From: Eledone cirrhosa
Taxonomy: Eukaryota
DNA length: 64,000 nucleotides
Assembly (NCBI GenBank): GCA_964016885.1
Contig: OZ024757.1
Span: forward strand, 37,448,001 to 37,512,000
Direction of reading: 5' to 3'
Positions 1,922-59,770 of this stretch are shown one piece after another. The notes under the pieces were generated by a model. It had not been told where the DNA came from. It searched no databases and worked only from the letters and a program-made list of their open reading frames with translations. The translations under genes and the position numbers were made by a program. Numbering within the stretch: position 1 is the first letter of the stretch; every line of letters starts with the position of its first letter.

Positions 1922-1988
1922 CATTTCCATGGAGCTGACAAACCACTGGAATATCCTCAACAAGGAGATATTGAAACAGCAGAAGCAC
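1922..1988 (+). CDS. MAP3K7: MAP3K7/TAK1-like exon just after the kinase domain ([22 protein letters not shown])
   Basis: Acceptor tttgtcttgcag, donor gtaagt; matches recalled human TAK1 YFPGADEPLQYP, which also starts a phase-0 exon; ends phase 1. Kinase exons would lie upstream of the window. Confidence 0.85.
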
Positions 1989-20889: not shown

Positions 20890-22530
20890 ATTCCTGAGAG
20901 TATCACGAGAGCAGAGTCCTCAAACATTCCTTCCGGCAGGTCTTGTCAAAAGGAACCGTCTCCAACTGGTCCATCTAGATCCTTAAGTGAGACCAGCCAA
21001 GCTCATGGGTGTTATCCAACCATCGTTATTGGGGTCAACCCTTGGGTCTCCTGCCAGTTGGTTTTGCCTGTAAAATCTGTCCAGTGATTCTTTCCTGAGA
21101 CATTCTAACCACATGTCCATAGTATCGGAGCTGTGATCTCTCAATTCCGAGAAATAGCAGCTCTACCTGGAGTGACTCCAGTGATTCTTTCCTGAGACAT
21201 TCTAACCACATGTCCATTGTATCGGAGCTGTGATCTCTCAATTTGGAGAAATAGCAGCTCTACCTGGAGTGACTCCAGTGATTCTTTCCTGAGACATTCT
21301 AACCACATGTCCATTGTATCGGAGCTGTGATCTCTCAATTTGGAGAAATAGCAGCTCTACCTGGAGTGACTCCAGTGATTCTTTCCTGAGACATTCTAAC
21401 CACATGTCCATTGTATCGGAGCTGTGATCTCTCAATTTGGAGAAATAGCAGCTCTACCTGGAGTGACTCCAGTGATTCTTTCCTGAGACATTCTAACCAC
21501 ATGTCCATTGTATCGGAGCTGTGATCTCTCAATTTGGAGAAATAGCAGCTCTACCTGGAGTGACTCCAGTGATTCTTTCCTGAGACATTCTAACCACATG
21601 TCCATTGTATCGGAGCTGTGATCTCTCAATTTGGAGAAATAGCAGCTCTACCTGGAGTGACTCCAGTGATTCTTTCCTGAGACATTCTAACCACATGTCC
21701 ATTGTATCGGAGCTGTGATCTCTCAATTTGGAGAAATAGCAGCTCTACCTGGAGTGACTCCAGTGATTCTTTCCTGAGACATTCTAACCACATGTCCATT
21801 GTATCGGAACTGTGATCTCTCAATTCCGAGAAATAGCAGCTCTACCTGGAGTGACTCCAGTGATTCTTTCCTGAGACATTCTAACCACATGTCCATTGTA
21901 TCAGAACTGTGATCTCTCAATTCCGAGAAATAGCAGCTCTACCTGGAGTGACTCCAGTGATTCTTTCCTGAGACATTCTAACCACATGTCCATTGTATCG
22001 GAACTGTGATCTCTCAATTTGGAGAAATAGCAGCTCTACCTGGAGTGACTCCAGTGATTCTTTCCTGAGACATTCTAACCACATGTCCATAGTATCAGAA
22101 CTGTGATCTCTCAATTCCGAGAAATAGCAGCTCTACCTGGAGTGACTCCAGTGATTCTTTCCTGAGACATTCTAACCACATGTCCATAGTATCAGAACTG
22201 TGATCTCTCAATTCCGAGAAATAGCAGCTCTACCTGGAGTGACTCCAGTGATTCTTTCCTGAGACATTCTAACCACATGTCCATAGTATCAGAACTGTGA
22301 TCTCTCAATTCCGAGAAATAGCAGCTCTACCTGGAGTGACTCCAGTGATTCTTTCCTGAGACATTCTAACCACATGTCCATAGTATCGGAGCTGTGATGT
22401 CTCAATTTGGAGAAGTAGCAGCTCTACCTGGAATGACTCTCTGATATCCAAGCTACAAATCTGTCTAGCGATTCTTTCCTGAGACATTCTAACTACATAG
22501 CCATAGTATCAGAGCTGTGATCTCTCAGTT
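20890..22530 (-). mobile_element. RTE (Expander/Rex3-like) LINE 3' end containing a 97-bp tandem array (about 14 copies)
   Basis: Minus translation LQVELLFLGIERSQLRYYGHVVRMSQERITGQILQAKPTGRRPKG, typical of the RTE ORF C-terminus; 97-bp period from 21080 to 22341. Confidence 0.85.
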
Positions 22531-24602: not shown

Positions 24603-24784
24603 CTGCCTACAGGAGCCCACCTATAACATCCACCAACAATTTTGTAACACCCCCAAGCAATGTTCTCACATATACCAATCCCACAGGTAAAACTGGTACT
24701 TATAGTGATACTGTGTGCCAGCCCCTTGATAGAATCGATCAAGGAGGTAAACCAAATGTAACTTTGCATCAAGTAATATATCCG
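24603..24784 (+). CDS. MAP3K7: TAK1-like linker exon (AYRSPPITSTNNF...VTLHQVIYP)
   Basis: Acceptor ttttcttcaacag, donor gtaagt; 182 nt, phase 1 in and 0 out, open and frame-compatible with neighbours. Confidence 0.8.
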
Positions 24785-25666: not shown

Positions 25667-25802
25667 TATCCTTACCCTTTTCCACCAACTAGTAGTGCTC
25701 CCCCTTCTTTGGCTGCCAGTCGTGAAAACCTCTATGAGAATCGCAATAACTCTAACCCTACTGGACAGATAATGTTAGAACAGAGCCGTGTAGCCCACCA
25801 TG
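25667..25802 (+). CDS. MAP3K7: TAK1-like linker exon (YPYPFPPTSSAPPSLAASRENLYENR...SRVAHH)
   Basis: (CT)n tract then taccag acceptor, donor gtaagt; 136 nt, phase 0 in and 1 out. Confidence 0.8.
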
Positions 25803-25999
25803 GTAAGTGACTGCGTATCATTTCACATTTACTACTGAGTTTATCACAAACAAACAAACAACTCATACAATATTTAGAAACAAAGAAAAAAAAAAAAAGA
25901 AAAATAGGTTCTTGTTAATTTTTTATCCTTTCGTGATTATATTTTTAACGAAATACTTTATCATCATCATCATCATTATCATCGTCATCATCATTATCA

Positions 26000-26360
26000 T
26001 CTACCTTCCTCTGAAGGGTCTTTGGAGTAACGTTACTGATAGAATGTGTAACTCGGAGATCAGAGAGTCACTCCAGGTAGAGCCGCTACTTCTCTGAATT
26101 GAGAGATCACAGCTCTGATACTATGGGTATGTGGTTAGAATGTCTCAGGAAAGAATCACTGGACAGATTTTACAGGCAAAATCAACCAGCAAGAGACCCA
26201 CAGCTAGATGGTTGGCTAGCATCCATGAGCTCGGCTGGTCTCGCTTGGGGATCCAGCCAGATCAGTTGGAAATGGTTGCTTCTGACAGGACCTGCTGGAA
26301 AATGGCATTTTCCGTTTGAGGACTCTGCTGCCCCCACGACCCTCTCAGGAATTAGTGGGT
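26000..26360 (+). mobile_element. RTE LINE 3' fragment
   Basis: IRESLQVEPLLL...VRMSQERITGQILQAK; inverted relative to 20890-22530. Confidence 0.85.
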
Positions 26361-26522
26361 GAAGAAGAAGATGATCATCACTGTCATCATCATTATTGTC
26401 ATCACCACCATCATCATCATTGTCACCATTTAATGTTCTTTTTCCCTGCTAGCCACTCTATTTCAATAAATAACTTCTTATATCAAATTATGTTGCAGTG
26501 TTTCTATTTAGATAGGAACACT

Positions 26523-27160
26523 TTAACCCTTTATCATTTACATTACTCTATATTTACTAATGTATTTTCACAGTAAAGGATTTACCTCACATAATTATCT
26601 TAGATCATATTGAATCTATGCAGTTTTAATATTATTTATTTTGAGAACAATACCTTAATGTCAGTATGAGTGGCCAGTTAGAGCCGGTTTGAACAGAAAG
26701 ATGTGAGAGAATTCTGGCTGGATATGGTCAGTTTAAATGCTAAAGGGTTAAGAGAGATTTGTCTTCTATTTCCAGCAGGTCCAGCTTCCAAGTTGAAGCT
26801 CTGCGTTTATGAGATCTGATCTCTACTGTTTCCAGCAGGTTTAGGCTACCATTTTGAGAGCTATGAGATCACCTACCATGTTGAAGCTGTGACATCTGAT
26901 CTCTATTTAGAGTAGATTCAGCTACCATGTTGAAGCTATGACATCTGATCTCTATTTCCAGCAAGTCCAGCTACCACGTTGAAGCTATGAGATCTGATCT
27001 CTGTTTCCAGTAGGTCCATCTACCATGTTGCAGCTAGGAGATCTGATCTCTTCTCTCTGTAAATATCTTTGTAGACAGTTAAGGTCATTGTCTGGGCACC
27101 AGTTGCCAATCACTCCTCACATTTAGTCACACCTCACCAGATCAAACTTAGCTTCAACGG
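26523..27160 (+). mobile_element. TTAA MITE (26523-26751) plus adjoining short-period repeat and unique tail
   Basis: TTAA and TIRs; the whole block recurs inverted at 43735-44235. Confidence 0.75.
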
Positions 27161-27172
27161 TTTAATATATAT

Positions 27173-27221
<49 letters not shown>

Positions 27222-28761
27222 GAGGTTATATTCAATTTGTTGGGATACAACAAGCAAAATATTTTTATATTTTTATATACATATATATATACATATATAC
27301 ACATATATACACACATATATACACACATATATATACACACACACACATATACATACACACATACATACACTCACATAAATATATATATATATATATTTAT
27401 TAAAATAACAGATTAAAGTTTAAGCAAAGATATATATATATATATATATTTATGTGTGTGTATGTATGTGTGTGTGTATGTATGTGTGTGTGTATGTATA
27501 TGTGTGTGTGTATATATATATGTGTGTGTATTTATATGTATATGTGTATATATGTATATGTGTATATATGTATATATATATATATGTATATATATATGCT
27601 TTTTGTGTCTTTGTTATACTTACTCAACAAATAAACAAAATATAATGTAAAAAATAATATTTAAAAAAATATAAAATAATGAAATAAATAAATTAATATT
27701 CTTAAATCTTACCATTTCTAGTCATATTAGCATCATCAATAATAGTAATAGTAGTTGTAGTAGTGATGGTGGTGTTGGTGGTAGTAGTTGTGGTGGTGTT
27801 CCTTTAATGTATTATTATTGCACAAACATTATATAACACTATATATATATTTCAATGGCTTGGTTATGTTAGATCCTGGTGACGTCATCAGGTGTGGATT
27901 GCATAGCTAGTTTGGAACTAGCTGTTGGAACGGCAAGAGCTCAGCCGTTGGTGTCCCGACTCTTTCATATTACCACACTCTACTATCTCAAGTATCGAGT
28001 ACTCTGGTGAGTAATGGTCTAACAGATTTTTACTGCATCCATTTTGATTTATATATATATATATATATATATATAGATATATAAATTGTTGTTTTGGAAG
28101 CTTCTACAACTCAGATGGGTAAATCTCTGGGTAACAAAATCTAGTGGCAGTAGGAGCAGAGAGAAAAGTAGGAACATGAGTAGGAGGAGATATAGAGAAT
28201 GTAAAAAAAATGGTGTAAAAAGAAAACCAGAGATAGAGTCACCTTGGAAGATATTTCTTGGTCCCTATATTTTGGATTTCACATCCATCGACAGGGTTCT
28301 TTTTTTCCGAGGGGAAAGAGGTATGTCGGAGAAGGGAACTATCTGTGGCCTTATTTATCTGCCATCTGTGTACAATATATTATATATATATATATTATAT
28401 ATATATATATATATACATACGTATGCATATGTATGTATATATGTGTGTGTGTATTATATGTATTATATATATATATATTTAAAATAGAAAGGCTTCTACA
28501 GGACTAGAACTGTTTCATTTGGGAGAAATCATCAGGAAGCTGCTGTCCAAGTAATATGGTGGTATTTATATCTTTTCTGGTGGTAGGAGAGGGTGGTGAT
28601 TGGGATGGATGGAGGTCATTGGTTGATGGGTTTAAAGAAAAGGGAATTCTTTAAAAACTATATTTAGAATAACAAAGGCAGAAAGAATTCTATAGACAGG
28701 TTCACTCTGATTTTTAAGGTTTGCTTAAGCTAACAATGCCTTTTGTCAGGTGTCTACAAGC

Positions 28762-28796
<35 letters not shown>

Positions 28797-28901
28797 TCAT
28801 CATCATTATCATCATCATCATATATATATATATATATGAATGTGCTTGTAGAAATAGCTGTCGAAACGGCTCGAGCTCTGCCGTCAGGGTTAAACATTTT
28901 C

Positions 28902-28936
<35 letters not shown>

Positions 28937-28968
28937 TACACATATGTGTATGTGTGTATCTGTGTGCG

Positions 28969-29001
<33 letters not shown>

Positions 29002-29092
29002 TATCACAGAAAAAAAGATCATACTCTGCTCTATGAGAGCATTGAGTGCTCAAACGACCTACCGCATACGGACGCTTTAAGCATCCAACACC

Positions 29093-29145
<53 letters not shown>

Positions 29146-29761
29146 ATATTGGGAAGAAGAAAAAAAAATGTACAATTTCCTTAATATTGTTCTCTTCCAT
29201 GATTTGTCTGAGATAATCTCCTATTTAAATGATTTCTTTGTTGAACTGCTAGCCATCTATTGGTTATAACAGTTATCAGGAGAAAACAACTCTAATTAAC
29301 TTATACGGACCCAAATAAATATTCACTAGATTTTCATAAATTTATTTTAGAGAAGAAACTTTATTGTATTTTTTTATTTAATTTTTTGTTTTATTTTATT
29401 TATTTTAATTTTGTTTTGTCTTTTTTCATAATGTTTATTTTTTTGCTTTTTCTTTCTTTCTTCCATCTTATTTTTTTTTCTGGCGATTTATTTCATATAG
29501 TAATAAATACATACGTATGTGTGTATATATGTGGGTGTGTGTGTATGCATCTGTGTGTGTACAGGTGTGTGTATATGTGTAGGTATATGTATGTGTATGT
29601 AAATTTGCGAGTTTGTATGTATGTGTATATATATATATACATATATATTATGTATGTATATATGTGTGTGTTTATGTATGTATATATATGTGTATGTGTA
29701 TATATATATATACATATATATTATGTATGTATATATGTGTGTGTTTATGTATGTATATATA

Positions 29762-29825
<64 letters not shown>

Positions 29826-30399
29826 ATGTGTGTTTATATATGTTTTGCATATGTATATATATATAATGTGTTTATTTGTATATGTATATATGTGTATATT
29901 TACATATGCCTACACACTCACATATATGTATGTATACATATGCATATGTGTATATTTGTATATGTATATATGTGCATATATACATATACACCTACATATA
30001 TATATGTATACATACACACGTGTATATATACATACACACCCACATATATATATGTATACATACACATACATATATATATGTGGGTGTGTATATATATATG
30101 TATACATATGTATATATACATATACACACCCACATATATATCTGTAATAGTGAAGTAGTGTGTCTTATGTTGGTACATATTATACACCAATAAAATATTA
30201 TCTGATACAGAACTCCATTTATAAAATAGTCAAATTATTATATCCCATCATTATGGGTAACTGTTACTTATAAGTTCCACCTTTTCACAGTGTTTACAGT
30301 GTTTTCAGCTCAATGTCAAGTCCTTTTAGGGTCGTTAGTGTTGAAGTTCTTTGTTTGATTGCCATTTTATTCTCTCTTTCTCTCTTTTACACTCTCCCT

Positions 30400-30830
30400 C
30401 TTTCCCTCTCTCTCTTTCTGTCTCTCTCACTCTCTCTCTCTCTCTTTCCGTCTCTCTCACTCTCTCTCTCTCTTTCCGTCACTCTCACTCTCTCTCTTTC
30501 CGTCTCTCTCACTCTTTCCGTCTCTCTCACTCTCTCTCTCTCTTTCCGTCTCTCTCACTCTCTCTCTCTCTTTCCGTCTCTCTCACTCTCTCTCTCTCTT
30601 TCCGTCTCTCTCACTCTCTCTCCCTCTTTCCGTCTCTCTCACTCTATTTCCGTCTCACCCGTCTCTCTCACTCTCTCTCTCTCTTTCCGTCTCTCTCACT
30701 CTCTCTCTCTCATTCCGTCTCTCTCACTCTCTCTCTCTCATTCCGTCTCTCTCACTCTCTCTCTCTCTTTCCGTCTCTCTCGCTCTCTTTCCGTCTCACC
30801 CGTCTCTCTCACTCTCTCTCTCTCTTTCCG

Positions 30831-30863
<33 letters not shown>

Positions 30864-30864
30864 G

Positions 30865-30897
<33 letters not shown>

Positions 30898-31330
30898 ATC
30901 TCTCTCTCTCTCTCTCTCTTTCCGTCTCTCTCTCTCTCTCTCTCTTTCCGTCTCTCTCTTTCCGTCTCTCACTCACTCTCTCTTTCTCTCTCACTCTCTC
31001 TCTTTCCGGCTCTCTCTCTCTCTCTTTCCGTCTCTCTCTCTCTCTCTCTTTCCGTCTCTCTCTCTCTCTCTCTTTCCGTCTCTCTCGCTCTCTCTTTCCG
31101 TCTCTCTCGCTCTCTCTCTTTCCGTCTCTCTTGCTCTCTCTCTCTTTCCGTCTCTCTTGCTCTCTCTCTTTCCGTCTCTCTCGCTCTCTCTCTCTCTCGC
31201 TCTCTTTCTTTCTCTCTCGCTCTCTCTTTTTCCGTCTCTCTCGCTCTCTTTCTCTCTCTCTCTCTTTCCGTCTCTCTTTCTGTCTCTCTCTCTCCATCTC
31301 TCTCGCTCTCTCTTGCTGCCTCTCTCTCTC
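30400..31330. repeat. CT-rich satellite (tttccgtctctctcactctctc)
   Basis: Visible; source of the Ser/Leu ORFs. Confidence 0.9.
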
Positions 31331-32141
31331 TCTTCTCTCTCTACCCTCTCTCCCTCTCATCTCTCCCGCTCTCTGATCTACCCCCCCTCTCTCCATCATC
31401 TCCTACTTCTCTATCTTTACATTGTTTTCCTCCCGTCTTCTCTCTCTCACACAACGATAACAAAAAAAAAAAAAAAAATTTTTTTTCTCTCCTTCTTTTT
31501 GCCATGGCAACTAATCTATTTCTTTTGTTTGTTTCTTCTCTCTCTCTTGACAAGCAATTATTTTTCTTAAAACTTATGTTGTGTCAAATGCGAGTTAGTT
31601 TTTCACCGGAACTTTCATAATTCATATCTTTTTGTTTGACATTTCAGAAATTAAAATAGAATAAAAAAACATTGAACATTTCCTCCACCTCTAACAACAA
31701 CAACAATAACAACACCTACACCTCAAAACCAACACCACCTCCATCACTAAAAACAACAATACCCCATCACTAAAAACAACAATAACACCACCACCTCTAA
31801 AAACAACACCACCTCCATCACTAAAACCACCACCACCACCACTACCACCACCACCTCTAAAAACAACACCACCTCCATCACTAAAAGCAACAACAACACC
31901 GCCACCTCTAAAAACAACAACAACACCTCCACCACAAAAACAACACCACCACCACTACCTGAAAAAACAACAACAACACCACCAATACCAATGTTTTACA
32001 ACCACACAAGTTTTGTGTGTTCACTCCTTCATGGTACCTTATACTCTCATGGAACGACCAAATGAGGTTTATTTTTCAACATAGTCTCTGGAAAGAAACA
32101 ATGCAGTTATTAATAAGAAGAGTTGAAATTAAATCAATCCT

Positions 32142-32740
32142 TTAACATTTACATTACTCTATATTTACTATTGTATTTTCACGGTAAAGGCTTTATCTCA
32201 CATAGCATTTACATTACTCTATATTTACTATTGTATTTTCACGGTAAAGGCTTTATCTCACATAACATTTACATTACTCTATATTTACTATTGTATTTTC
32301 ACGGTAAAGGCTTTATCTCACATAACATTTACATTACTCTATATTTACTATTGTATTTTCACGGTAAAGGCTTTATCTCACATAACATTTACATTACTCT
32401 ATATTTACTATTGTATTTTCACGGTAAAGGCTTTATCTCACATAGCATTTACATTACTCTATATTTACTATTGTATTTTCACGGTAAAGGCTTTATCTCA
32501 CATAGCATTTACATTACTCTATATTTACTATTGTATTTTCACGGTAAAGGCTTTATCTCACATAGCATTTACATTACTCTATATTTACTATTGTATTTTC
32601 ACGGTAAAGGCTTTATCTCACATAGCATTTACATTACTCTATATTTACTATTGTATTTTCACGGTAAAGGCTTTATCTCACATAATTGTCTCACATAATA
32701 TCGAATCTATGAGATTTTGATATTATTTATTTTGAGAATA
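32142..32740 (+). repeat. MITE-derived 60-bp tandem array (9 copies)
   Basis: Unit catttacattactctatatttactattgtattttcacggtaaaggctttatctcacatag equals the MITE left end. Confidence 0.9.
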
Positions 32741-33278
32741 AGGGCGGTGGTTTGGCAGTATTGGTAGAGGGTCGGACGGCATGCTTTGCAGCATAGGAGT
32801 TATAGCCCTTTACGTTCTGTGTTCAAATCCCGCTGAGGTTAACTTTGCCTTTCATCCTTATGGTGGTCAATAAAATAAAGTACCAGTAATGCACTGGGGT
32901 AATTGCTGGCCTTGTGCCTAAAGTAGAAACAAGGTTGAAAGGCAACGCTAACCGTGGCAGGATTTGAACTTAGAACATAAAGAGTCGTAACTCGATGTCA
33001 ATTTAATAATGATGAGGATTATGATGATAGAAATATTTATGATGATGATGATGATGATAATAATAAAAGTGATAATAATAATAATAATTGTTTCTACTTT
33101 TGGCACAAGGCCAGCAATTACCCCAGTACATTACTGGTACTTTATTTTATCGACCCCGTAAGGATGAAAGGCAAAGTTAACCTCGGCGGGATTTGAACTC
33201 AGAATGGCAAGGGCCGTAACTTTATGCGTCAAAGCATGGCGTGTGACCTTCTACCGATACTGCCAATCCACCGCCCTT
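32741..33278. mobile_element. Inverted pair of tRNA-SINEs (32741-32932 +, 33085-33278 -)
   Basis: Both copies full length, tail to tail. Confidence 0.85.
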
Positions 33279-33813
33279 TAATAATAATAATAATAATAAT
33301 AATAATAGTAATATTTATGGATAGTAATGATGGTGATGATGATTGTTAAATGCAATGATCAAAGCAATATAAATGGCAACAGTAGAAGATATCTTCAACT
33401 AAGTTCCATTGATGTATTTTACACCTAAAATAAATAAAAAAAATTAAAAACCAAAGGAATTTTAAATACAACATTAAAATTAATAACACCACCACCACAA
33501 CACCACCACCAGCATCAACTCATATGTATGTATATAGTATATATTTATATATATATGCGCATCTTTATTTGTATATATATATATATATGTATGTGTGTGT
33601 ACATATGTATGAGTGTATATACATACATATATATATATATGTATGTATGTATATGTAGGAAAAGAGTCAGGACTCCGACGGTTGAGCTCCGGCCGTTTCG
33701 ACAGCTAGATCCAAACTAACCCTGACTCTTTTCCTATTACCCACTCTACTACCCTAAGTATTGAGTACTCTGGTGCGTTATGGTCCACCTGGTTCTTTAC
33801 CACACTTTCTTTG

Positions 33814-33861
<48 letters not shown>

Positions 33862-34109
33862 GAATTAAAAGGGACAAGATGCGGTGTGGTTACTAATAAA
33901 GAGTGTTTAGAAATGTAAGGGAAACACAAACATGAGACAAGTCCCCTCTTCAGTTGTCTGCCATGCGTTGAAACATCAGAGGCCCACAGCAGACAATTGA
34001 AGAGGGGAATTGTCTTATTTTTGTGTTTCCCTACATTTCTAAACACTATATATATATATATATATATATATAATTATGAAGACCAAAATGTGAAGAGGGC
34101 TTGAAAAGG

Positions 34110-34157
<48 letters not shown>

Positions 34158-34483
34158 TATGTATATGAGGAAAATGATTTTAGAATAAGGATTTGAAAAG
34201 AGCACTTGGTATATATAGAAAGGAACTTTATAACATGTACAAAAATTGATGCTAAAAATTGATGTTCAGCAAAGCCTGCTTTGTCTGTACTGGATTATCA
34301 AAACATTTGTTATTAGGTTAAATAGCTTTTTCTTGTTAAAACTCCTGCATGTTGATTCTCGAACACATTGGTTTGGGTTGCTTATGCCCTTGCTAAAGTA
34401 AGGGTTGTGTCCCTTTCTGTAGCATTCTCCTTATATAACGGGATCTATATAGAACATTTTCTAACGTCCATACTTTCTTTTAC

Positions 34484-34514
<31 letters not shown>

Positions 34515-34994
34515 ATATGTATATATTTGTATATTGTTGAATAAATAAAATAAAAGAAACACAGGGATGTAAAAATACAGTCTTATTAGGTTCACGCTTA
34601 GTATATATGTATGTGTATGTGTGTGTGTGTATCATCATCGTTTAACGTCCATCTTCCACGCTTGCATTGGTTTGGACGGGAATTTTCCCACTTGAGGCAA
34701 GATTGGTTGTCTTGCTCGCATAGGACTGTCTGGCGGGTTTTCTACGGCTGGATGCCCTTCCTAACACCAACCACGTTTACAGTATGGACTGGGAGATTTT
34801 TACCGTGTTACCTACACGGCCACATTACAGTGTGGACTGTGTGTTTTTTTGTCGTGACACCTACACGACCTCATTTATTTCGGACTGGATGTTGTGGTAC
34901 CAACATAACTTTACATCGAAAGGGGTGGTGTGGATGGGGTGGGAGTAGTGGGATGGGGGTGTATTTTTGTTAAGAGGTGCCTACTGACTGTAGG

Positions 34995-35362
34995 TTTCGC
35001 TTTGTACTTAGGCAAGGCGGGTCCTCTGTATTACTGTGTAGCCCCAAAGATCTCGATCCAGTGACATTGTCTTGGAGAGGTGTAAGTGTGTGAGGTTGGA
35101 ATTTATCAAGTCGTCCCAGGTTTTTCTGGGTCTGCCTAGTCCATGGCTACCATCTATTTTTATCGCCCTGCACTTTTTATACAGCTGTCGTCTTTCATGC
35201 GCATCACGTGACCGTACCAACGTAGTCTTCTCTCGAATAAACAACATCTGATCCCTCTTATTCCTAATTTCTACGTTAGTTCATTTATGCTTTGCCGTTC
35301 ACGTATATTACTATTACACATCCAACGGAGCATGCAAGCTTCGTTGCTCTCCAGTCTGCATG
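34995..35362 (-). mobile_element. RTE-clade LINE 3' fragment (second family)
   Basis: Minus translations LESNEACMLRWMCNSNIRER and GRPRKTWDDLINSNL...DRDLW. Confidence 0.75.
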
Positions 35363-35556
35363 TAGACATGTATGTGGTATATATATTCATATATATACAT
35401 ATATGTGAGTGTGTGGAGACATTACATATAGATGTGTTTCTATGCATATACATACACACACACACATATATATGTGTGTGTAGACATAGACATTACATAT
35501 ATATTTGTGTTTCTATATATGAACATATGTACATACACGTACCTACCCGTACATAC

Positions 35557-35593
<37 letters not shown>

Positions 35594-36089
35594 AGAATAT
35601 CAAAGATAACAACAACAACAGTAATATCTGCTCCACACCCCCACATCACCCCCACCCATTCCAAACTTGGCCATAGTTTAGAAAAACTAAGGCCATTCCT
35701 TATTTTAGTTCCAGTCTGGAACTTTCTACCAATCCCTCCGACTAAAACAGTAACATTACTTACTTTGAAGCTACAATTAAACCTCCTCCTCTCTCTCTCT
35801 CTCATCTTTTCTTTCTCTCTATCTCTCATCCTCCATTTCTTCCTTTGTCTATTTTGATATTATTATCAAGTTGAAATAGGATAAAAAATGTGTGTGTATG
35901 TGTAATTGATATGGTATGTGTGTGAGTATTACCACATTTATTATATTTAATGTGGCTGTTTCTATCTCTTCGTGTTTGTGTTCAAGGAGGATATCTGAAA
36001 TATTCATGGAATCCTCTCTGGTCAGTTTCTGTGATAGTTAGGGTAAAAATCTCCTCTCAGCCACTAATGACCGTTCTGGGATTTGACCA

Positions 36090-37730
36090 TGCTCTACCTG
36101 GAGTGCCTTGCTGATCTCCGAGATATAAATCTGTGCAGCGATCCTTTCCTGAGACATTCTAACCACATACCTATAGTATCAGAGCTGTGATATCTCAATT
36201 CCGAGAAATAGTAGCTCTACCTGGAGTGACTCTCTGATCTCCAAGCTACACATTCTTTCCTGAGACATACTAACCACATACCTATAGTATCAGAGCTGTG
36301 ATATCTCAATTCCGAGAAATAGTAGCTCTACCTGGAGTGACTTTCTGATCTCCAAGCTACACATTCTTTCCTGAGACATACTAACCACATACCTATAGTA
36401 TCAGAGCTGTGATATCTCAATTCCGAGAAATAGTAGCTCTACCTGGAGTGACTTTCTGATCTCCAAGCTACACATTCTTTCCTGAGACATTCTAACCACA
36501 TACCTATAGTATCAGAGCTGTGATATCTCAATTCCGAGAAATAATAGCTCTACCTGGAGTGACTCTCTGATCTCCAAGCTACACATTCTTTCCTGAGACA
36601 TACTAACCACATACCTATAGTATCAGAGCTGTGATATCTCAATTCCGAGAAATAGTAGCTCTACCTGGAGTGACTTTCTGATCTCCAAGCTACACATTCT
36701 TTCCTGAGACATACTAACCACATACCTATAGTATCAGAGCTGTGATATCTCAATTCCGAGAAATAGTAGCTCTACCTGGAGTGACTTTCTGATCTCCAAG
36801 CTACACATTCTTTCCTGAGACATTCTAACCACATACCTATAGTATCAGAGCTGTGATATCTCAATTCCGAGAAATAGTAGCTCTACCTGGAGTGACTCTC
36901 TGATCTCCAAGCTACACATTCTTTCCTGAGACATACTAACCACATACCTATAGTATCAGAGCTGTGATATCTCAATTCCGAGAAATAGTAGCTCTACCTG
37001 GAGTGACTTTCTGATCTCCAAGCTACACATTCTTTCCTGAGACATTCTAACCACATACCTATAGTATCAGAGCTGTGATATCTCAATTCCGAGAAATAAT
37101 AGCTCTACCTGGAGTGACTCTCTGATCTCCAAGCTACACATTCTTTCCTGAGACATTCTAACCACATACCTATAGTATCAGAGCTGTGATATCTCAATTC
37201 CGAGAAATAGTAGCTCTACCTGGAGTGACTCTCTGATCTCCAAGCTACACATTCTTTCCTGAGACATACTAACCACATACCTATAGTATCAGAGCTGTGA
37301 TATCTCAATTCCGAGAAATAGTAGCTCTACCTGGAGTGACTTTCTGATCTCCAAGCTACACATTCTTTCCTGAGACATTCTAACCACATACCTATAGTAT
37401 CAGAGCTGTGATATCTCAATTCCGAGAAATAGTAGCTCTACCTGGAGTGACTCTCTGATCTCCAAGCTACACATTCTTTCCTGAGACATACTAACCACAT
37501 ACCTATAGTATCAGAGCTGTGATATCTCAATTCCGAGAAATAGTAGCTCTACCTGGAGTGACTTTCTGATCTCCAAGCTACACATTCTTTCCTGAGACAT
37601 ACTAACCACATACCTATAGTATCAGAGCTGTGATATCTCAATTCCGAGAAATAGTAGCTCTACCTGGAGTGACTCTCTGATCTCCAAGCTACACATTCTT
37701 TCCTGAGACATTCTAACCACATGCCTATAG
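36090..37730 (-). repeat. RTE-derived 111-bp tandem array (about 14-15 copies)
   Basis: 111-bp period from 36171 to 37725; the unit translates on the minus strand to an RTE ORF segment. Confidence 0.9.
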
Positions 37731-38897
37731 TAAATTACTCAAAATTACTAATTAATTAAAATAGAGTGTATTTCGTTAATAACATGGTCACGAAAGGGTT
37801 AAAATGTTTAAAAACACCATACATTGAATAAGGAACTCAATACAACTGTAGAGTGTAATATTTATTAAAAGTTGCTATAATTTTCATGTTATTGACTTAA
37901 AAAAGTTTGCTGTATCTGTAGCTTTTTCAAATTGTGTGTTTATATATATATATATATGTGTGTGTGTGTCTGTGTGTATATATATGTACAAACACACACA
38001 CACATATATATACACATACATGCATATATGAATTCATACTAATTGGTGTTTCTGTGTTATTGTTTTTGTTATTTCTCACACACTGGTTTACTGCATGTAC
38101 ATGTGTATGTGTATGTATGTAAGTGACTTTATTTGTATATATATATATACATATGTATATATATGTATTTGAAAAAATGGGGAATAATTTATCTTATTGT
38201 ACCATGGAATTCCCTTTATTTTTTACAACTACTATATGTATGTATATGTCTGTATGTATATATATATATATATATGTGTGTTTGTATTTGGATATGTATG
38301 TGTATATATACACACAAACACATATATAAATACATACATACCTTATGAATTATTAATGTGCTGGGAGTGTTTGAAATTTCAGAATATGAGACTCCTAAAT
38401 GCAGAAAATAACTATAATAAATAGTTCAGTATAGATAATAGTTGAGAACATCTTAGAGATGGAAAAAAAATGGAAAAAATGTTGTGCCTCTGTCTATTTT
38501 TTTTCTATTTTTAATCCTTTATCATTTACATTACTCTATATTTATTATTATAAGCAGCAAGTTCACGGAGTTAGAATGTCAGATACAAAGCTGTGTGGTA
38601 TTTGGTCCGTCTCTCTGCTCTCTCAGTTCAAATCTCGCCGAGGTGGACTTTACCTTTCATCCTTTCGAGGTCAATAATAAAAATACCAGTCTAGTACTGG
38701 GGTCGATTCTTCCTCTATATCTCTTTCTCATTTCCTCTCTCTCTCTCACTGAAATCTACTGTACTTAGGCCTGGAGGGGGACGGGCTCTGCCAGGTTTTA
38801 AAAAATGCCCTAGAAACACTGTATGTGAATATGGCACCCCTATGGTTCCTTAGGAGTTACAGGTCCACACCACACCACACCACACCATACCATACCA

Positions 38898-39262
38898 TAT
38901 TTACTATTATATTTTCATGATAAAGGCTTTACCTCACAGTTATCTCACATAATATCAACTCTATGAGATTTTGATATTTATTTTATAATATCTTAACATA
39001 AGTATGAGTGGCCAGTTACAGCTGGTTTGAATAGAAAGAATTGAGAGAATTCTGGCCTGATTTAGCTGGTTTAACCCTTTAGCATTTACATTACTCTATA
39101 TATACTATTGTATTTTCGTGGTAAAGGCTTTATCTCACATAATATCGAATCTATGAGATTTTAATGTAATTTATTTGGAGAACAATACCTTAATATCAGT
39201 ATGAGTGGCCAGTTACAGCTGGTTTGGACAGAAAGAGGTGAAAGAATTCTGGCTGGATAAGG
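38898..39262 (+). mobile_element. Two tandem TTAA MITE copies
   Basis: MITE body twice; ttaaccctttagcatttac near 39071. Confidence 0.75.
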
Positions 39263-39430
39263 TTTAAAGATAATTTACCCAATTCTCTTAGCTATTATCT
39301 ATAGTGAGTGACTGTTGTTATGACTATTTTCTACATTTGGGACTCTCAATTTTCATGTTTTTGTTCATGTATGTTATTTGTATTTTACATTACTCTTCAT
39401 GTCTTTTACTGCATGTAGGAACATTATGAA

Positions 39431-39890
39431 GACATTCTTGAAAAGTACAAAACAACACTATGACTGTATCACATTAACTCTTAATGTCCTGTACCTCATC
39501 AAACCACATTAGTAAGATATTCTTGAAAAGTACAAAACAACACTATGACCGTATCACATTAACTCTTAATGTCCTGTACCTCATCAAACCACATTAGTAA
39601 GACATTCTTGAAAAGTACAAAACAACACTATGACTGTATTACATTAACTCTTAATGTCCTGTACCTCATCAAACCACATTAGTAAGACATTCTTGAAAAG
39701 TACAAAACAACACTATGACTGTATCACATTAACTCTTAATGTCCTGTACCTCATCAAACCACATTAGTAAGACATTCTTGTAAAATACAAAACAACACTA
39801 TGACCGTATCACATTAACTCTTAATGTCCTGTACCTCATCAAACCACATTAGTAAGACATTCTTGAAACGTACAAAACAGCACTGTGATT
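39431..39890. repeat. 85-bp tandem repeat (about 5.4 copies)
   Basis: ga(c/t)attcttg recurs at 39431, 39516, 39601, 39686, 39771 and 39856. Confidence 0.9.
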
Positions 39891-39906
39891 GCATTATATT
39901 GCAAAT

Positions 39907-40100
39907 AGGGCGGTGGAATGGCAGTATCGGTAGAGGGTCGGATGCCATGCTTTGCAGCAAAGAGTTACGGCCCTTTATGGTCTGTTGTTCAAATCCCGCC
40001 TAGGTTAACTTTGCCTTTCATCCTTACGGGGTCGATAAAATAAAGTACCAGTAATGTACTGGGATAATTGCTGGCCTTGTGCCAAAAGAAGAAACAATTA
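39907..40100 (+). mobile_element. tRNA-SINE (Meta-like core)
   Basis: Full head, core and tail. Confidence 0.85.
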
Positions 40101-40255
40101 TATTGCATACAAATTCAAGTCTTCAGCTTATTGCAAACTTTCACTACAAATATTTGATTTAAGAAAGCTGTTTTTAGATATTTTCTGTGAAATTGTTACA
40201 GGATGTTAAGAGTTAAATCTGTATGTGTTTGAAGCTAGTGCTTGATTGTAGGCAT

Positions 40256-40271
40256 TGCATGTATAACTAAC
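40256..40271 (+). promoter_or_regulatory. RBFOX motif TGCATG plus ACTAAC (branch point or QKI motif) upstream of the candidate cassette exon
   Basis: TGCATG at 40256-40261 and ACTAAC at 40266-40271, about 50 nt before the acceptor AG at 40312-40313. Confidence 0.55.
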
Positions 40272-40313
40272 ACAGCTTCCATTCCTTTTGTGTTTGTTGT
40301 TATGTTTGAACAG

Positions 40314-40418
40314 TCCTAGGCCATCGGAGGTCTGGTTCCTATGGAAACAGCACACCTAGTCGGAACAACTATGACACACTCTTCAGAAGCACAAGCGTTA
40401 ATGTTTTACCTTTCACAG
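40314..40418 (+). CDS. MAP3K7: TAK1-like symmetric exon (VLGHRRSGSYGNSTPSRNNYDTLFRSTSVNVLPFT), candidate cassette exon
   Basis: Acceptor tgtttgaacag, donor gtgaga; 105 nt, phase 1-1, open; GHRRSGSYGN resembles GHRKTASFGN of human TAK1 exon 12. Confidence 0.8.
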
Positions 40419-40512
40419 GTGAGAGAACCATTAAAATATACCATGTTTTTAGTTCATTCATAATTCATATTTGAATATGTGAGTGTTGTGTGTTGTGTAT
40501 GTGTGTGTGTGT

Positions 40513-40556
<44 letters not shown>

Positions 40557-40560
40557 TATA

Positions 40561-40610
<50 letters not shown>

Positions 40611-40614
40611 TATA

Positions 40615-41478
<864 letters not shown>

Positions 41479-41937
41479 CTAAAAACAACAACAGCAACAA
41501 CAAACATCCATGTTTTCTAAATATTGTTATGTTTGAAGCATGTTTAAAATATATATTCAGTAGTCTGGATCATGGGTTGAGGAAGGATGAAAGTGACTGG
41601 GTGAGAGGAGTGATGGGAATAGAACTAATGATGAATGTTATGAAGATAACTAGAATGAGATGGTTGGGAGATTTGGTGGAGGTGTGTGGAAAAAAATCTG
41701 AAAAATTGCTAAGAGTAATGTCCGTTTTGCATTGCTGCAGTTCTCTAAAAACAACAACAGCAATAACAACAACAAACATCCTGTTTTCTAAATATTGCAA
41801 TGTTTTAAGCATGTTTAACTTATATATTCTGTAGCCTAGCATCTTAACATCACAACCCTTGTGATTCTTGTTGTTTCGGTTATTGAAATTATATTGCACT
41901 TGTTTGTCAATTGAGTATTCCGCAAGTATTTGTACTC

Positions 41938-42520
41938 TTAACCCTTTAGCATTTAAACCGGCCGTATCTTTCTGCCCAAACTGGCTATAACTGCCTAAAG
42001 TTCTCTCACCTCTTTCTGTTCAAACTGGCTGTAGCTGGCCAGAATTCTCTCACTTCTCTATGTTCAAACTGGCTGTAGCTGGCCAGAATTCTCTCACTTC
42101 TTTATGTTCAAACTGGCTGTAGCTAGCCAGAATACTCTCACCTCTTTCTGTTCAAACCAGTCATAACTGGTTGCTCATACTTATGTTAAGGTATTGTTCT
42201 CAAAATAAATAATATTAAAATATGATAGATTCAATAATATGTGAGGTAAAGCCTTTACTGTGAAAATACAATAGTATATATCGAGTAATGTGAATGTTAT
42301 GTGAGATATTATGTGAGATAAAGCCTTTACTGTGAAAATACAGTAGTAAATATAGTAATGTAAATGTTATGAGAGATATCATGAGGTAAAGCCTTTACTG
42401 TGAAAATACAATAGTATATATAGAGTAATGTAAATGTTGTGTGAGATATTATGTGAGGTAAAGCCCTTACTGTGAAAATACAATAGTATATATAGAGTAT
42501 TGTAAATGCGAAAGGGTTAA
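41938..42520 (-). mobile_element. TTAA MITE with internal tandem duplications
   Basis: ttaaccctttagcattt ... aaagggttaa termini. Confidence 0.8.
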
Positions 42521-43019
42521 ACTAATTGATATGTCTTGATGACTAAAAGTGCATAGAAGCAGTTGTGTAGTATGTCTTTTGTGAGAAATGAACTGATACT
42601 CTCTCTTTACCCTATATAACACTGTGATCGGCGTGAGGGTGAAACTAGGGGTGGAATGCTGCACGGGGTCCTATCTCTCTGGCACGTGAGCAAATTTGAG
42701 TACAGCAGCCATGTTATGTTCTTGAGAAAAGTTCCAAAAGTAGTCTAACTTCATTTACCTGGCACTAGAACCAATATAGGCATGTTGTATTTACAAGCAA
42801 GGTACCAGAGATTTACCTGGCACTAAGGCATGCTATATTTATGAGCAAGGTCCCAGAAATACTTTACTTTCATTAATCTGTCACAAGAGCAAATATAAGT
42901 ACAGCAGGCATGCCTTCTCCCTGTACAGGATACTTTGTCTTTTATTCTTTCAGGTTAATAAATAAAAATACCAGTCCAGGGTCAAGGGCAGTTAACTCAT
43001 GTACCAAACACCAATGTAA

Positions 43020-43212
43020 TAATTGTTTTTACTTTTGGCACAAGGCCAGCAATTACCTCAGTGCATTACTGGTACTTTATTTTATCGATCCCGTAAGGAT
43101 GAAAGGCAAAGTTAACCTCGGTGGGATTTGAACTCAGACCGTAAAGGGCCGTAACTCTATGCTGTAAAGAATGGCGTCCAACCTTCTACTGATACTGCCA
43201 ATCCACCGCCCT
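43020..43212 (-). mobile_element. tRNA-SINE (Meta-like core)
   Basis: Reverse complement of the 39907-40100 family. Confidence 0.85.
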
Positions 43213-43328
43213 AGTAATAATGCAAAAGCTATAGTTCCAGAGTCTTGATTATTTTTCATTAGAAACTATGGTAACGAAAGGATTGCTTTGTTCTATTTTT
43301 TTTTCTTTTTTCTTATTTTTTCTTTTAG

Positions 43329-43559
43329 ATGTAATCAATGGTCAAGCTCCAGTTGGTTCTACATCATCGCGGTCAAACAGCCCCGTGAAACCACTACAGC
43401 ACGGCAACTCCATGTCAGATATGGCCTCTCATGCACCACAACCATCACAACCACCACCACAACAACAACAACCGCCACAACCAACTAATGTGGAACAGAT
43501 GTTCTCATATCCAGTTGCAGCCCCAGATAACACATCTTTTGACAATATGAATATAAACA
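43329..43559 (+). CDS. MAP3K7: TAK1-like linker exon (DVINGQAPVGSTSSRSNSPVKP...FDNMNIN)
   Basis: Strong pyrimidine tract with ttttag acceptor, donor gtgagt; 231 nt, phase 1-1; S/P/Q-rich. Confidence 0.82.
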
Positions 43560-43734
43560 GTGAGTATAAAAGCAACAAATACTTTCCTTTTACAGAAGAA
43601 AATATTGTTTTATTTGTTAGAGGCTTACGGCAAAGCAGTTAGGACATTAACCCTTTAGTATTTAAACTGTTTGTTTGTTGAGTAAGTCTAGTAAAGAAGT
43701 CACACAAAATACAAGGAAAGATATGTAAAAAAAA

Positions 43735-44471: not shown

Positions 44472-44518
44472 CTAAGCCATACATAATGCAGCTTGATAGA
44501 CTGGAACAACAACATCAG
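44472..44518 (+). CDS. MAP3K7: TAK1-like exon (TKPYIMQLDRLEQQHQ)
   Basis: tttttctag acceptor, gtaaga donor; aligns to human AYLTLDHQLQ and ends at the equivalent phase-0 junction. Confidence 0.85.
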
Positions 44519-47098: not shown

Positions 47099-47158
47099 CC
47101 TCTAACACCCTACCCTACCTGTAAGGACTCCATGGATATATATAAGGAGCATATATTG
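47099..47158 (+). CDS. MAP3K7: TAK1-like exon (PLTPYPTCKDSMDIYKEHIL)
   Basis: gttttcag acceptor, gtgaga donor; aligns to human [20 protein letters not shown]. Confidence 0.9.
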
Positions 47159-51968: not shown

Positions 51969-52024
51969 TTGGCCCAGGAATACAGTAAAGCAAAGATACA
52001 TTACCAATATTTAATGAAAAAAAA
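51969..52024 (+). CDS. MAP3K7: TAK1-like exon ([18 protein letters not shown])
   Basis: tattctag acceptor, gtaagt donor; aligns to human MAQEYMKVQTEIALLLQRK; ends phase 2. Confidence 0.88.
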
Positions 52025-58725: not shown

Positions 58726-58804
58726 GAAAGAATTAATCGAGGACTATGGTTCTGGAGACACTTACGATAGTGAAAAGGAACGAGATCGATTAACCGAGGA
58801 ATAT
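58726..58804 (+). CDS. MAP3K7: TAK1-like coiled-coil exon (KELIEDYGSGDTYDSEKERDRLTEEY)
   Basis: ccccag acceptor, gtaagt donor; phase 2 in and 0 out; aligns to human QELVAEL...QEHKKLLDE. Confidence 0.85.
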
Positions 58805-59707: not shown

Positions 59708-59770
59708 AATAGTCTGAGACTTCTTTACGATAACCTGAAGAAACAAGTGCAACAGTTGAAGAAAGATTAA
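59708..59770 (+). CDS. MAP3K7: TAK1-like last coding exon (NSLRLLYDNLKKQVQQLKKD-stop)
   Basis: Long pyrimidine tract with ttccag acceptor; TAA stop; aligns to human KSLSTYYQQCKKQL. Confidence 0.85.
   Translation, partial: NSLRLLYDNLKKQVQQLKKD

Follow-up and report, generated by a model that had tools for sequence, protein, structure and literature searches.

A likely protostome member of the TAK1 (MAP3K7) exon 12 splicing event in the octopus Eledone cirrhosa

Exon 12 of MAP3K7, the gene for the kinase TAK1, is a medically studied splicing switch (EMT, liver cancer), and its conservation has so far been described for deuterostomes. The vertebrate exon is presumably phase 1-1, and Venables et al. 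(2012, Mol Biol Evol 29:261) reportedly followed the Tak1 splicing event across vertebrates, chordates, echinoderms and hemichordates. The passage of PMC4438066 that cites this work describes the exon 12 event as conserved across deuterostomes. Supplement rows give the exon a length of 81 nt in human, mouse and zebrafish (PMC5703972), and in the human protein it comprises residues 404-431 of 606 (PMC7432881, TAK1 passage).

Several factors act on the mammalian exon, which has a tissue bias towards inclusion in epithelia and skipping in muscle or mesenchyme. In the Tak1 results of PMC6014294, Rbfox2 favours the short form, which binds Tab2 better, and inclusion amounts to 0.89 in hepatocytes against 0.05-0.12 in other liver cells. 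Inclusion of exon 12 is promoted by ESRP2, and TAK1 without the exon is constitutively active and the better binder of TAB3 (PMC10767434, TAK1 passages). Knockdown of QKI raises exon 12 inclusion (PMC7430667), and a review describes exclusion driven by TGF-beta via Smad3/PCBP1 and Rbfox2 (PMC8996879). RBFOX binding upstream of an exon represses its inclusion (PMC6663295).

Alternative exons that span the protostome-deuterostome split are rare. In the main text of a study of 20 bilaterians, only two confident neural alternative exons cross it (bioRxiv 10.64898/2026.09.05.749416); that main text does not name TAK1, and the supplements could list the exon. If the TAK1 event does have counterparts in molluscs, annelids and a brachiopod, its origin would move back to the bilaterian ancestor.

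The window analysed here is a stretch of 64,000 nt from Eledone cirrhosa (assembly GCA_964016885.1, contig OZ024757.1, positions 37,448,001 to 37,512,000, forward strand). With Argonauta TAK1 as the guide, an octopod TAK1/MAP3K7 gene model of 18 coding exons and 607 aa was obtained, in which all 18 exons are collinear with Argonauta TAK1 and the gene spans 157,806 nt (Table 1). Kinase-domain exons were found among twenty stretches upstream of the window, so that the model has the N-terminal kinase and the C-terminal coil of TAK1-type proteins. In homologue searches, the best named matches of exon 2 were MAP3K7-like proteins of Argonauta (95%) and Octopus vulgaris (93%); exon 13 searched alone gave no matches. 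By these sequence features, the gene is TAK1/MAP3K7.

Table 1. TAK1 exons and putative splicing elements of Eledone cirrhosa; positions are those of the window.
Feature	Position	Strand	Remarks
TAK1 exons 1-8	23-98 kb upstream of the window
TAK1 coding exon 9	1922..1988	+	Argonauta-guided gene model
TAK1 coding exon 10	24603..24784	+	Argonauta-guided gene model
TAK1 coding exon 11	25667..25802	+	SLAASREN block; upstream partner; ends in phase 1
TGCATG, RBFOX-type element	40256..40261	+	58 nt upstream of the acceptor; function predicted
ACTAAC, likely branch point	40266..40271	+	at -48, A at -44; also QKI/STAR-type element
UG-interrupted polypyrimidine tract	40281..40313	+	two TGTTTG; CAG acceptor
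TAK1 coding exon 12, predicted cassette	40314..40418	+	105 nt; phase 1-1; about residues 395-429 of 607
Second AG, candidate alternative acceptor	40318..40319	+	6 nt into exon 12; in frame; from sequence and Mytilus isoform pair
Codons for GHRRSGSYGN, conserved core	40319..40348	+	fits HxRxxS; serine 40337-40339
TAK1 coding exon 13	43329..43559	+	downstream partner; phase 1-1; gene model and spliced contig
TAK1 coding exon 14	44472..44518	+
TAK1 coding exon 15	47099..47158	+
TAK1 coding exon 16	51969..52024	+	TGCATG also at -54 and +90
TAK1 coding exon 17	58726..58804	+
TAK1 coding exon 18	59708..59770	+	includes stop codon 59768-59770

Exon 12 reads LGHRRSGSYGNSTPSRNNYDTLFRSTSVNVLPFT, lies between a CAG acceptor and a GTGAGA donor, and has a sole open frame, that of LGHRRSGSYGN. 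The stretch is single-copy in the genome, and Argonauta TAK1 contains the same exon at 70% identity. The initial annotation had described a 105-nt phase 1-1 exon with GHRRSGSYGN whose skipping would join 25802 to 43329 in frame. The exon is borne out by the sequence, the gene model and a spliced contig, and the skipped frame is indeed open to the stop codon in exon 18, at a length of 572 aa. Use of the second AG as an acceptor is a prediction; the exon would then begin at the Gly of GHRR, matching the start implied by the Mytilus pair.

Exon 13 is also phase 1-1, and joint skipping of exons 12 and 13 leaves a frame of 495 aa; isoforms with this double skip are present in scallops, mussels, oysters, Biomphalaria and Lingula. 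Together, exons 15 and 16 measure 116 nt and span what in human is the region of alternative exon 16, a comparison for which the size of the human exon is assumed. The TAK1 introns contain tandem arrays at 21080-22439, 36144-37732 and 40936-41465, built of 97-nt units (14 copies, 98%) and 111-nt units (14.3 copies, 98%; 4.8 copies, 84%, in reverse orientation). These young arrays share sequence and are probably pieces of one repeat family.

The correspondence with vertebrate exon 12, also proposed in the initial annotation, is supported. In a MAFFT alignment of 21 TAK1 proteins, GHRRSGSYG is placed on GHRK/SHRKTASFG of turtle and fish, that is, on the GHRKTASFGN core, and the RRRSIQ motif lies one block downstream. 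The octopus 11-mer scores 39 (BLOSUM62) against amniote exon 12, 36 against the tunicate-like, 35 against the sea-urchin and 27 against the fish copy, vs 1-4 against five RRRS blocks. The match to RRRSIQ that the initial annotation had named as counter-evidence thus does not occur. Exon 12 follows the SLAASREN exon and thus occupies the slot of the vertebrate exon, which follows an exon with SLAAS and KRxSAD; presumably, the human intron phases match the octopus ones through exons 4-12. The KRxSAD block at the end of exon 11 is absent in octopods and present in cuttlefish, other molluscs and vertebrates.

Several isoform pairs point to the behaviour of the counterpart exon in other animals. 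In a scripted comparison, eight of 12 pairs differ by exactly one exon-12-like block, which is 27-34 aa in the seven lophotrochozoan pairs: a cuttlefish-like pair assembled from sequencing runs (P0129/P0131, 34 aa), Haliotis asinina (29 aa), Gigantopelta (28 aa), Patella vulgata (28 aa), Biomphalaria (30 aa), Mytilus coruscus (28 aa) and Lingula (27 aa). The eighth is the tortoise Gopherus (27 aa). The other four gave no clean block: both Aplysia forms include it, cuttlefish-like pair 1 differs at two places, and the oyster and tunicate-like pairs carry substitutions elsewhere. By eye, the same block difference is seen in a second cuttlefish-like pair, in the oyster forms and in the tunicate-like pair (30 aa). 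The named isoforms are annotation models; RefSeq X-isoforms are usually based on RNA-seq. The counterpart exon is skipped in other cephalopods, gastropods, a mussel and a brachiopod. For Aplysia, a survey lists 10 TAK1 isoforms, and its TAK1 passages do not discuss their splicing (PMC9334734).

The four Octopus TAK1 records found (P0005 and P0125-P0127, from O. vulgaris, O. sinensis and O. bimaculoides) are kinase-only sequences of 226-303 aa. If these annotations are truncated, exon-orthology studies based on octopus would miss exon 12. Behind the exon-12 counterpart, gastropods and Mytilus possess another optional exon, of 21-35 aa (P0013, P0143, P0137, P0041, P0093). A tblastn search of Eledone introns 11 and 12 with three peptides (E<=1) found neither a further motif exon nor a counterpart of this extra gastropod exon.

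The motif itself is more widespread than the cassette. In gastropods, bivalves, annelids, Lingula and a nemertean, the following exon opens with a second copy. All eight cephalopod sequences carry 0 or 1 copy, and by this comparison the second copy is lost in cephalopods. Orthology of the second lophotrochozoan copy with RRRSIQ was considered and discarded, as the sequence scores (0-7) do not support it. Outside the lophotrochozoans, a profile search with 10 hits named and a further homologue search detected a single copy in krill, a millipede, Limulus and ticks, and the krill copy is a cassette-like GHRRSASYG. Among 57 chelicerate sequences, the motif is single-copy in 55 and a clean cassette skip is found in none; two Rhipicephalus sanguineus models that lack 8 motif residues were rejected as skips because they run out of frame later. 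None of the 13 insect-like and coral sequences that were checked (named: locust, sawfly, Porites) has the motif. As judged from the proteins compared, the peptide motif is bilaterian.

Because slot, phase and size are the same, common descent is the simplest reading, and exon 12 is likely a cassette that was inherited, together with vertebrate exon 12, from the bilaterian ancestor; we consider common descent of the cassette somewhat better than an even proposition. The second motif copy in most lophotrochozoans, which the initial annotation had missed, leaves room for a convergent origin. The motif would then be ancestral and the cassette would have two origins, one in deuterostomes and another in lophotrochozoans through a tandem acceptor and motif duplication that made the upstream copy optional, with RBFOX elements gained independently. 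The lineages with two copies fit such a course, as does the comparison with amniote exon 12, in which the next-exon copy of annelids and Lingula outscores the cassette copy (39 vs 31, averages of five non-mollusc lophotrochozoans) and is thus closer to deuterostome exon 12. Ticks, Limulus and the millipede have one copy without skip forms, but this copy may correspond to the second one, the cassette having been lost, and the krill GHRRSASYG is cassette-like. In Limulus, the isoforms differ in a single residue that immediately precedes the motif, as expected at an exon start, TGCATG positions differ among loci (see below), and tissue-specific exons often recur at equivalent positions according to the main text of the 20-bilaterian preprint (bioRxiv 10.64898/2026.09.05.749416). 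Against this, a symmetric cassette must arise separately twice on the same motif, and the two clades agree in slot and phase and very nearly in size (27-30 aa in most). A double origin is regarded as possible but the less likely course.

The elements upstream of exon 12, TGCATG and ACTAAC, had been placed about 50 nt before it and were found at -58 and -48. TGCATG at -58 is a (U)GCAUG element in the near upstream intron, as described for RBFOX, and a short RRM pattern detected an RBFOX RRM exon in this genome (L030). The 157,806-nt gene contains 44 TGCATG; by chance, 1.9% of AG dinucleotides have one <=100 nt upstream and for 6.4% there is one in the 150-nt flanks of a 105-nt block, and exon 16 alone among the 17 other coding exons has one <=150 nt away. 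Because of these gene-wide background rates, the Eledone TGCATG alone is only mildly beyond chance.

Other loci were obtained by a metagenome scan with an acceptor plus motif pattern that is blind to TGCATG. Four of the eight hits are animal TAK1 loci, two bivalve-like (L027, L028) and two annelid-like (L023, L029) by best match, of which three have neighbouring TAK1 exons and L023 was assigned by its likeness to L029. The remaining hits (L022, L024, L025, L026) were dropped as chance, having early stops after the motif and no other TAK1 match. Taken to the best in-frame donor, the exons of the four animal loci are 96, 105, 93 and 87 nt long, all multiples of three with AG/GT ends. TGCATG is located at -11 in L029, at -137 in L028 and at +35 after the donor in L027; L023 has only GCATG, at -11, in a conserved intron block common to L029. 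Excluding the discovery locus, TGCATG occurs <=150 nt from the exon in three of these four loci vs two of 24 control exons (17 of the Eledone gene and 7 of the other loci; Fisher p=0.011), the 150-nt window being our own choice and the two annelid-like loci, as relatives, counting as one lineage. One constitutive exon of L028 also has a TGCATG. Downstream of the exon, the annelid-like loci have a conserved open frame in common, SRARSYSTPYVWGG (L023:2080-2230 and L029:2255-2400).

The TGCATG positions do not align between the octopus and the two bivalve-like loci, and the downstream site of L027 would predict activation. TGCATG is thus enriched near the exon in the animal loci compared, but at positions that do not match across the molluscs (-58, -137, +35 after the donor). 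The proposal that both the switch and its regulator are bilaterian-ancestral is supported for the switch by motif homology and by skipping in other molluscs and a brachiopod; for the regulator, it is a prediction.

CTAAY occurs at -46/-27 and -39 in the two bivalve-like loci. The ACTAAC/CTAAY elements at -27 to -47 in all three molluscs may equally well be explained as ordinary branch points, a reading that the initial annotation had missed for ACTAAC. ACTAAY is found at +16 and +19 after the donor in both bivalve-like loci and is absent there in the octopus, and a STAR dimerisation domain exon was detected in this genome (L031). TGTTTG, a motif picked after inspection of the data, is present in the last 33 nt of five of five cassette acceptors vs none of the 16 other acceptors of the Eledone gene, and in one of five control acceptors shown from other loci. 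Such a motif suits CELF- or ESRP-type proteins. A structure-based splicing mechanism was dropped, as the RNA of the acceptor region does not fold better than its shuffled versions (z 0.10).

In Eledone itself, contig 26 of run X4 (2256 nt) joins 40313-40416 to 43327-43559 with 0 mismatches and 0 other letters. Exon 12 is included in mRNA in one run of the same species; the stretch is present in four runs of one study, none recorded as RNA, and the contig comparison, which spanned 39900-43700 (exons 12 and 13), had one spliced run, in an assembly type that drops minor isoforms. That octopod exon 12 is now constitutive, with TGCATG a chance hexamer and ACTAAC a branch point only, is quite improbable: the sole spliced contig and the Argonauta model both include the exon, which is the only motif copy of cephalopods, CTAAC at -47 is in a normal branch-point position, TGCATG is also near one of the 17 other coding exons, and RNA structure does not exceed the shuffles, but cuttlefish-like cephalopods, likewise without a second copy, have skipped transcripts (P0007, P0130, P0131), the UG-interrupted acceptor is common to all four other cassette loci and unlike the other acceptors of the gene, and contigs lose minor forms. 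Skipping of exon 12 very probably occurs in this octopus.

For the regulation of this skipping, a mechanism can be proposed in which RBFOX, together with a STAR protein, would bind just upstream of exon 12 and repress its inclusion. The weak UG-rich tract and RBFOX at TGCATG beside the branch point would together lower inclusion. In muscle or mesenchyme-like cells, repression via this TGCATG, which precedes the likely branch adenine by 14 nt, might well take place, although we hold it at slightly under an even chance.

A possible function of the exon lies in its core. In GHRRSGS, the serine is preceded by H at -5 and by R at -3, in accordance with HxRxxS, and the Gly two residues after the serine is present in all 25 hand-picked cassette copies, for which H and S, but not Gly, were imposed by the search pattern. 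The consensus HXRXXS/T is shared by LATS. For NDR, it is given in the consensus statement of PMC9711861. These features suggest that exon 12 toggles a predicted phospho-site: its inclusion would add a basophilic site to the kinase linker. As a tentative extension, the included exon could provide a consensus target of NDR/LATS that damps TAK1-TAB2/3 signalling, as inclusion of mammalian exon 12 does. Among the literature matches listed, there is no report of TAK1 exon 12 as an NDR/LATS substrate.

The most far-reaching version, which we consider rather improbable as a whole, is that an RBFOX/QKI-repressed cassette toggling an NDR/LATS site in TAK1 has been kept since the bilaterian ancestor and would link Hippo-family kinases to TAK1 output, in epithelial versus muscle or mesenchymal cells, from octopus to human; the site would have been duplicated in lophotrochozoans, with the duplicate lost again in cephalopods and both copies lost in insects. 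The cross-phylum comparison reduces the exon to a 10-residue core and singles out one serine as the candidate functional payload, and this focus offers a direct test of how exon 12 would restrain TAK1. Oyster, mussel, Aplysia and cuttlefish are possible test systems.

The literature matches listed contain no report of exon 12 in a protostome; Venables et al. (2012), which is considered here by its title and by the description in PMC4438066, may mention protostomes. The octopus exon is real and likely a new addition, from a protostome, to a known splicing event, its RBFOX control being plausible and predicted. Compared with the deuterostome Tak1 event, in which the tunicate-like include/skip pair and the sea-urchin motif align with the octopus core, the octopus is the protostome case. 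Compared with vertebrate MAP3K7 exon 12 (TAK1b vs TAK1a; 81 nt, 27 aa), the octopus exon has the same gene, slot and frame-neutrality. Both lie between the kinase domain and the C-terminal TAB-binding coil, share the H-[RK]-[RK]-x-x-S-x-G core, and have include/skip isoforms in relatives. RBFOX- and QKI-type elements near the exon are a further likeness, the octopus regulation being predicted. The octopus exon differs in its length of 105 nt and has no likeness beyond the 10-residue core, and the downstream RRRSIQ block of vertebrates has no match in cephalopods. Unlike vertebrates, most lophotrochozoans have the second motif copy, and gastropods and Mytilus have the additional optional exon behind it. 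As to the motif of NDR1/2 and LATS substrates, nearly all lophotrochozoan copies fit it, whereas vertebrate copies have K at -3; the likeness is a consensus match only.

Another comparison is offered by the bilaterian-ancestral neural microexons of APBB and MADD in the main text of the preprint, which are likewise shared between protostomes and deuterostomes and located in a signalling protein (bioRxiv 10.64898/2026.09.05.749416). These microexons are 6-9 nt long, neural and kept in insects, whereas the TAK1 exon is 81-105 nt long and its motif is absent in the insect sequences seen. By the rule of that study, which calls for an insect member, the TAK1 exon would therefore not qualify.
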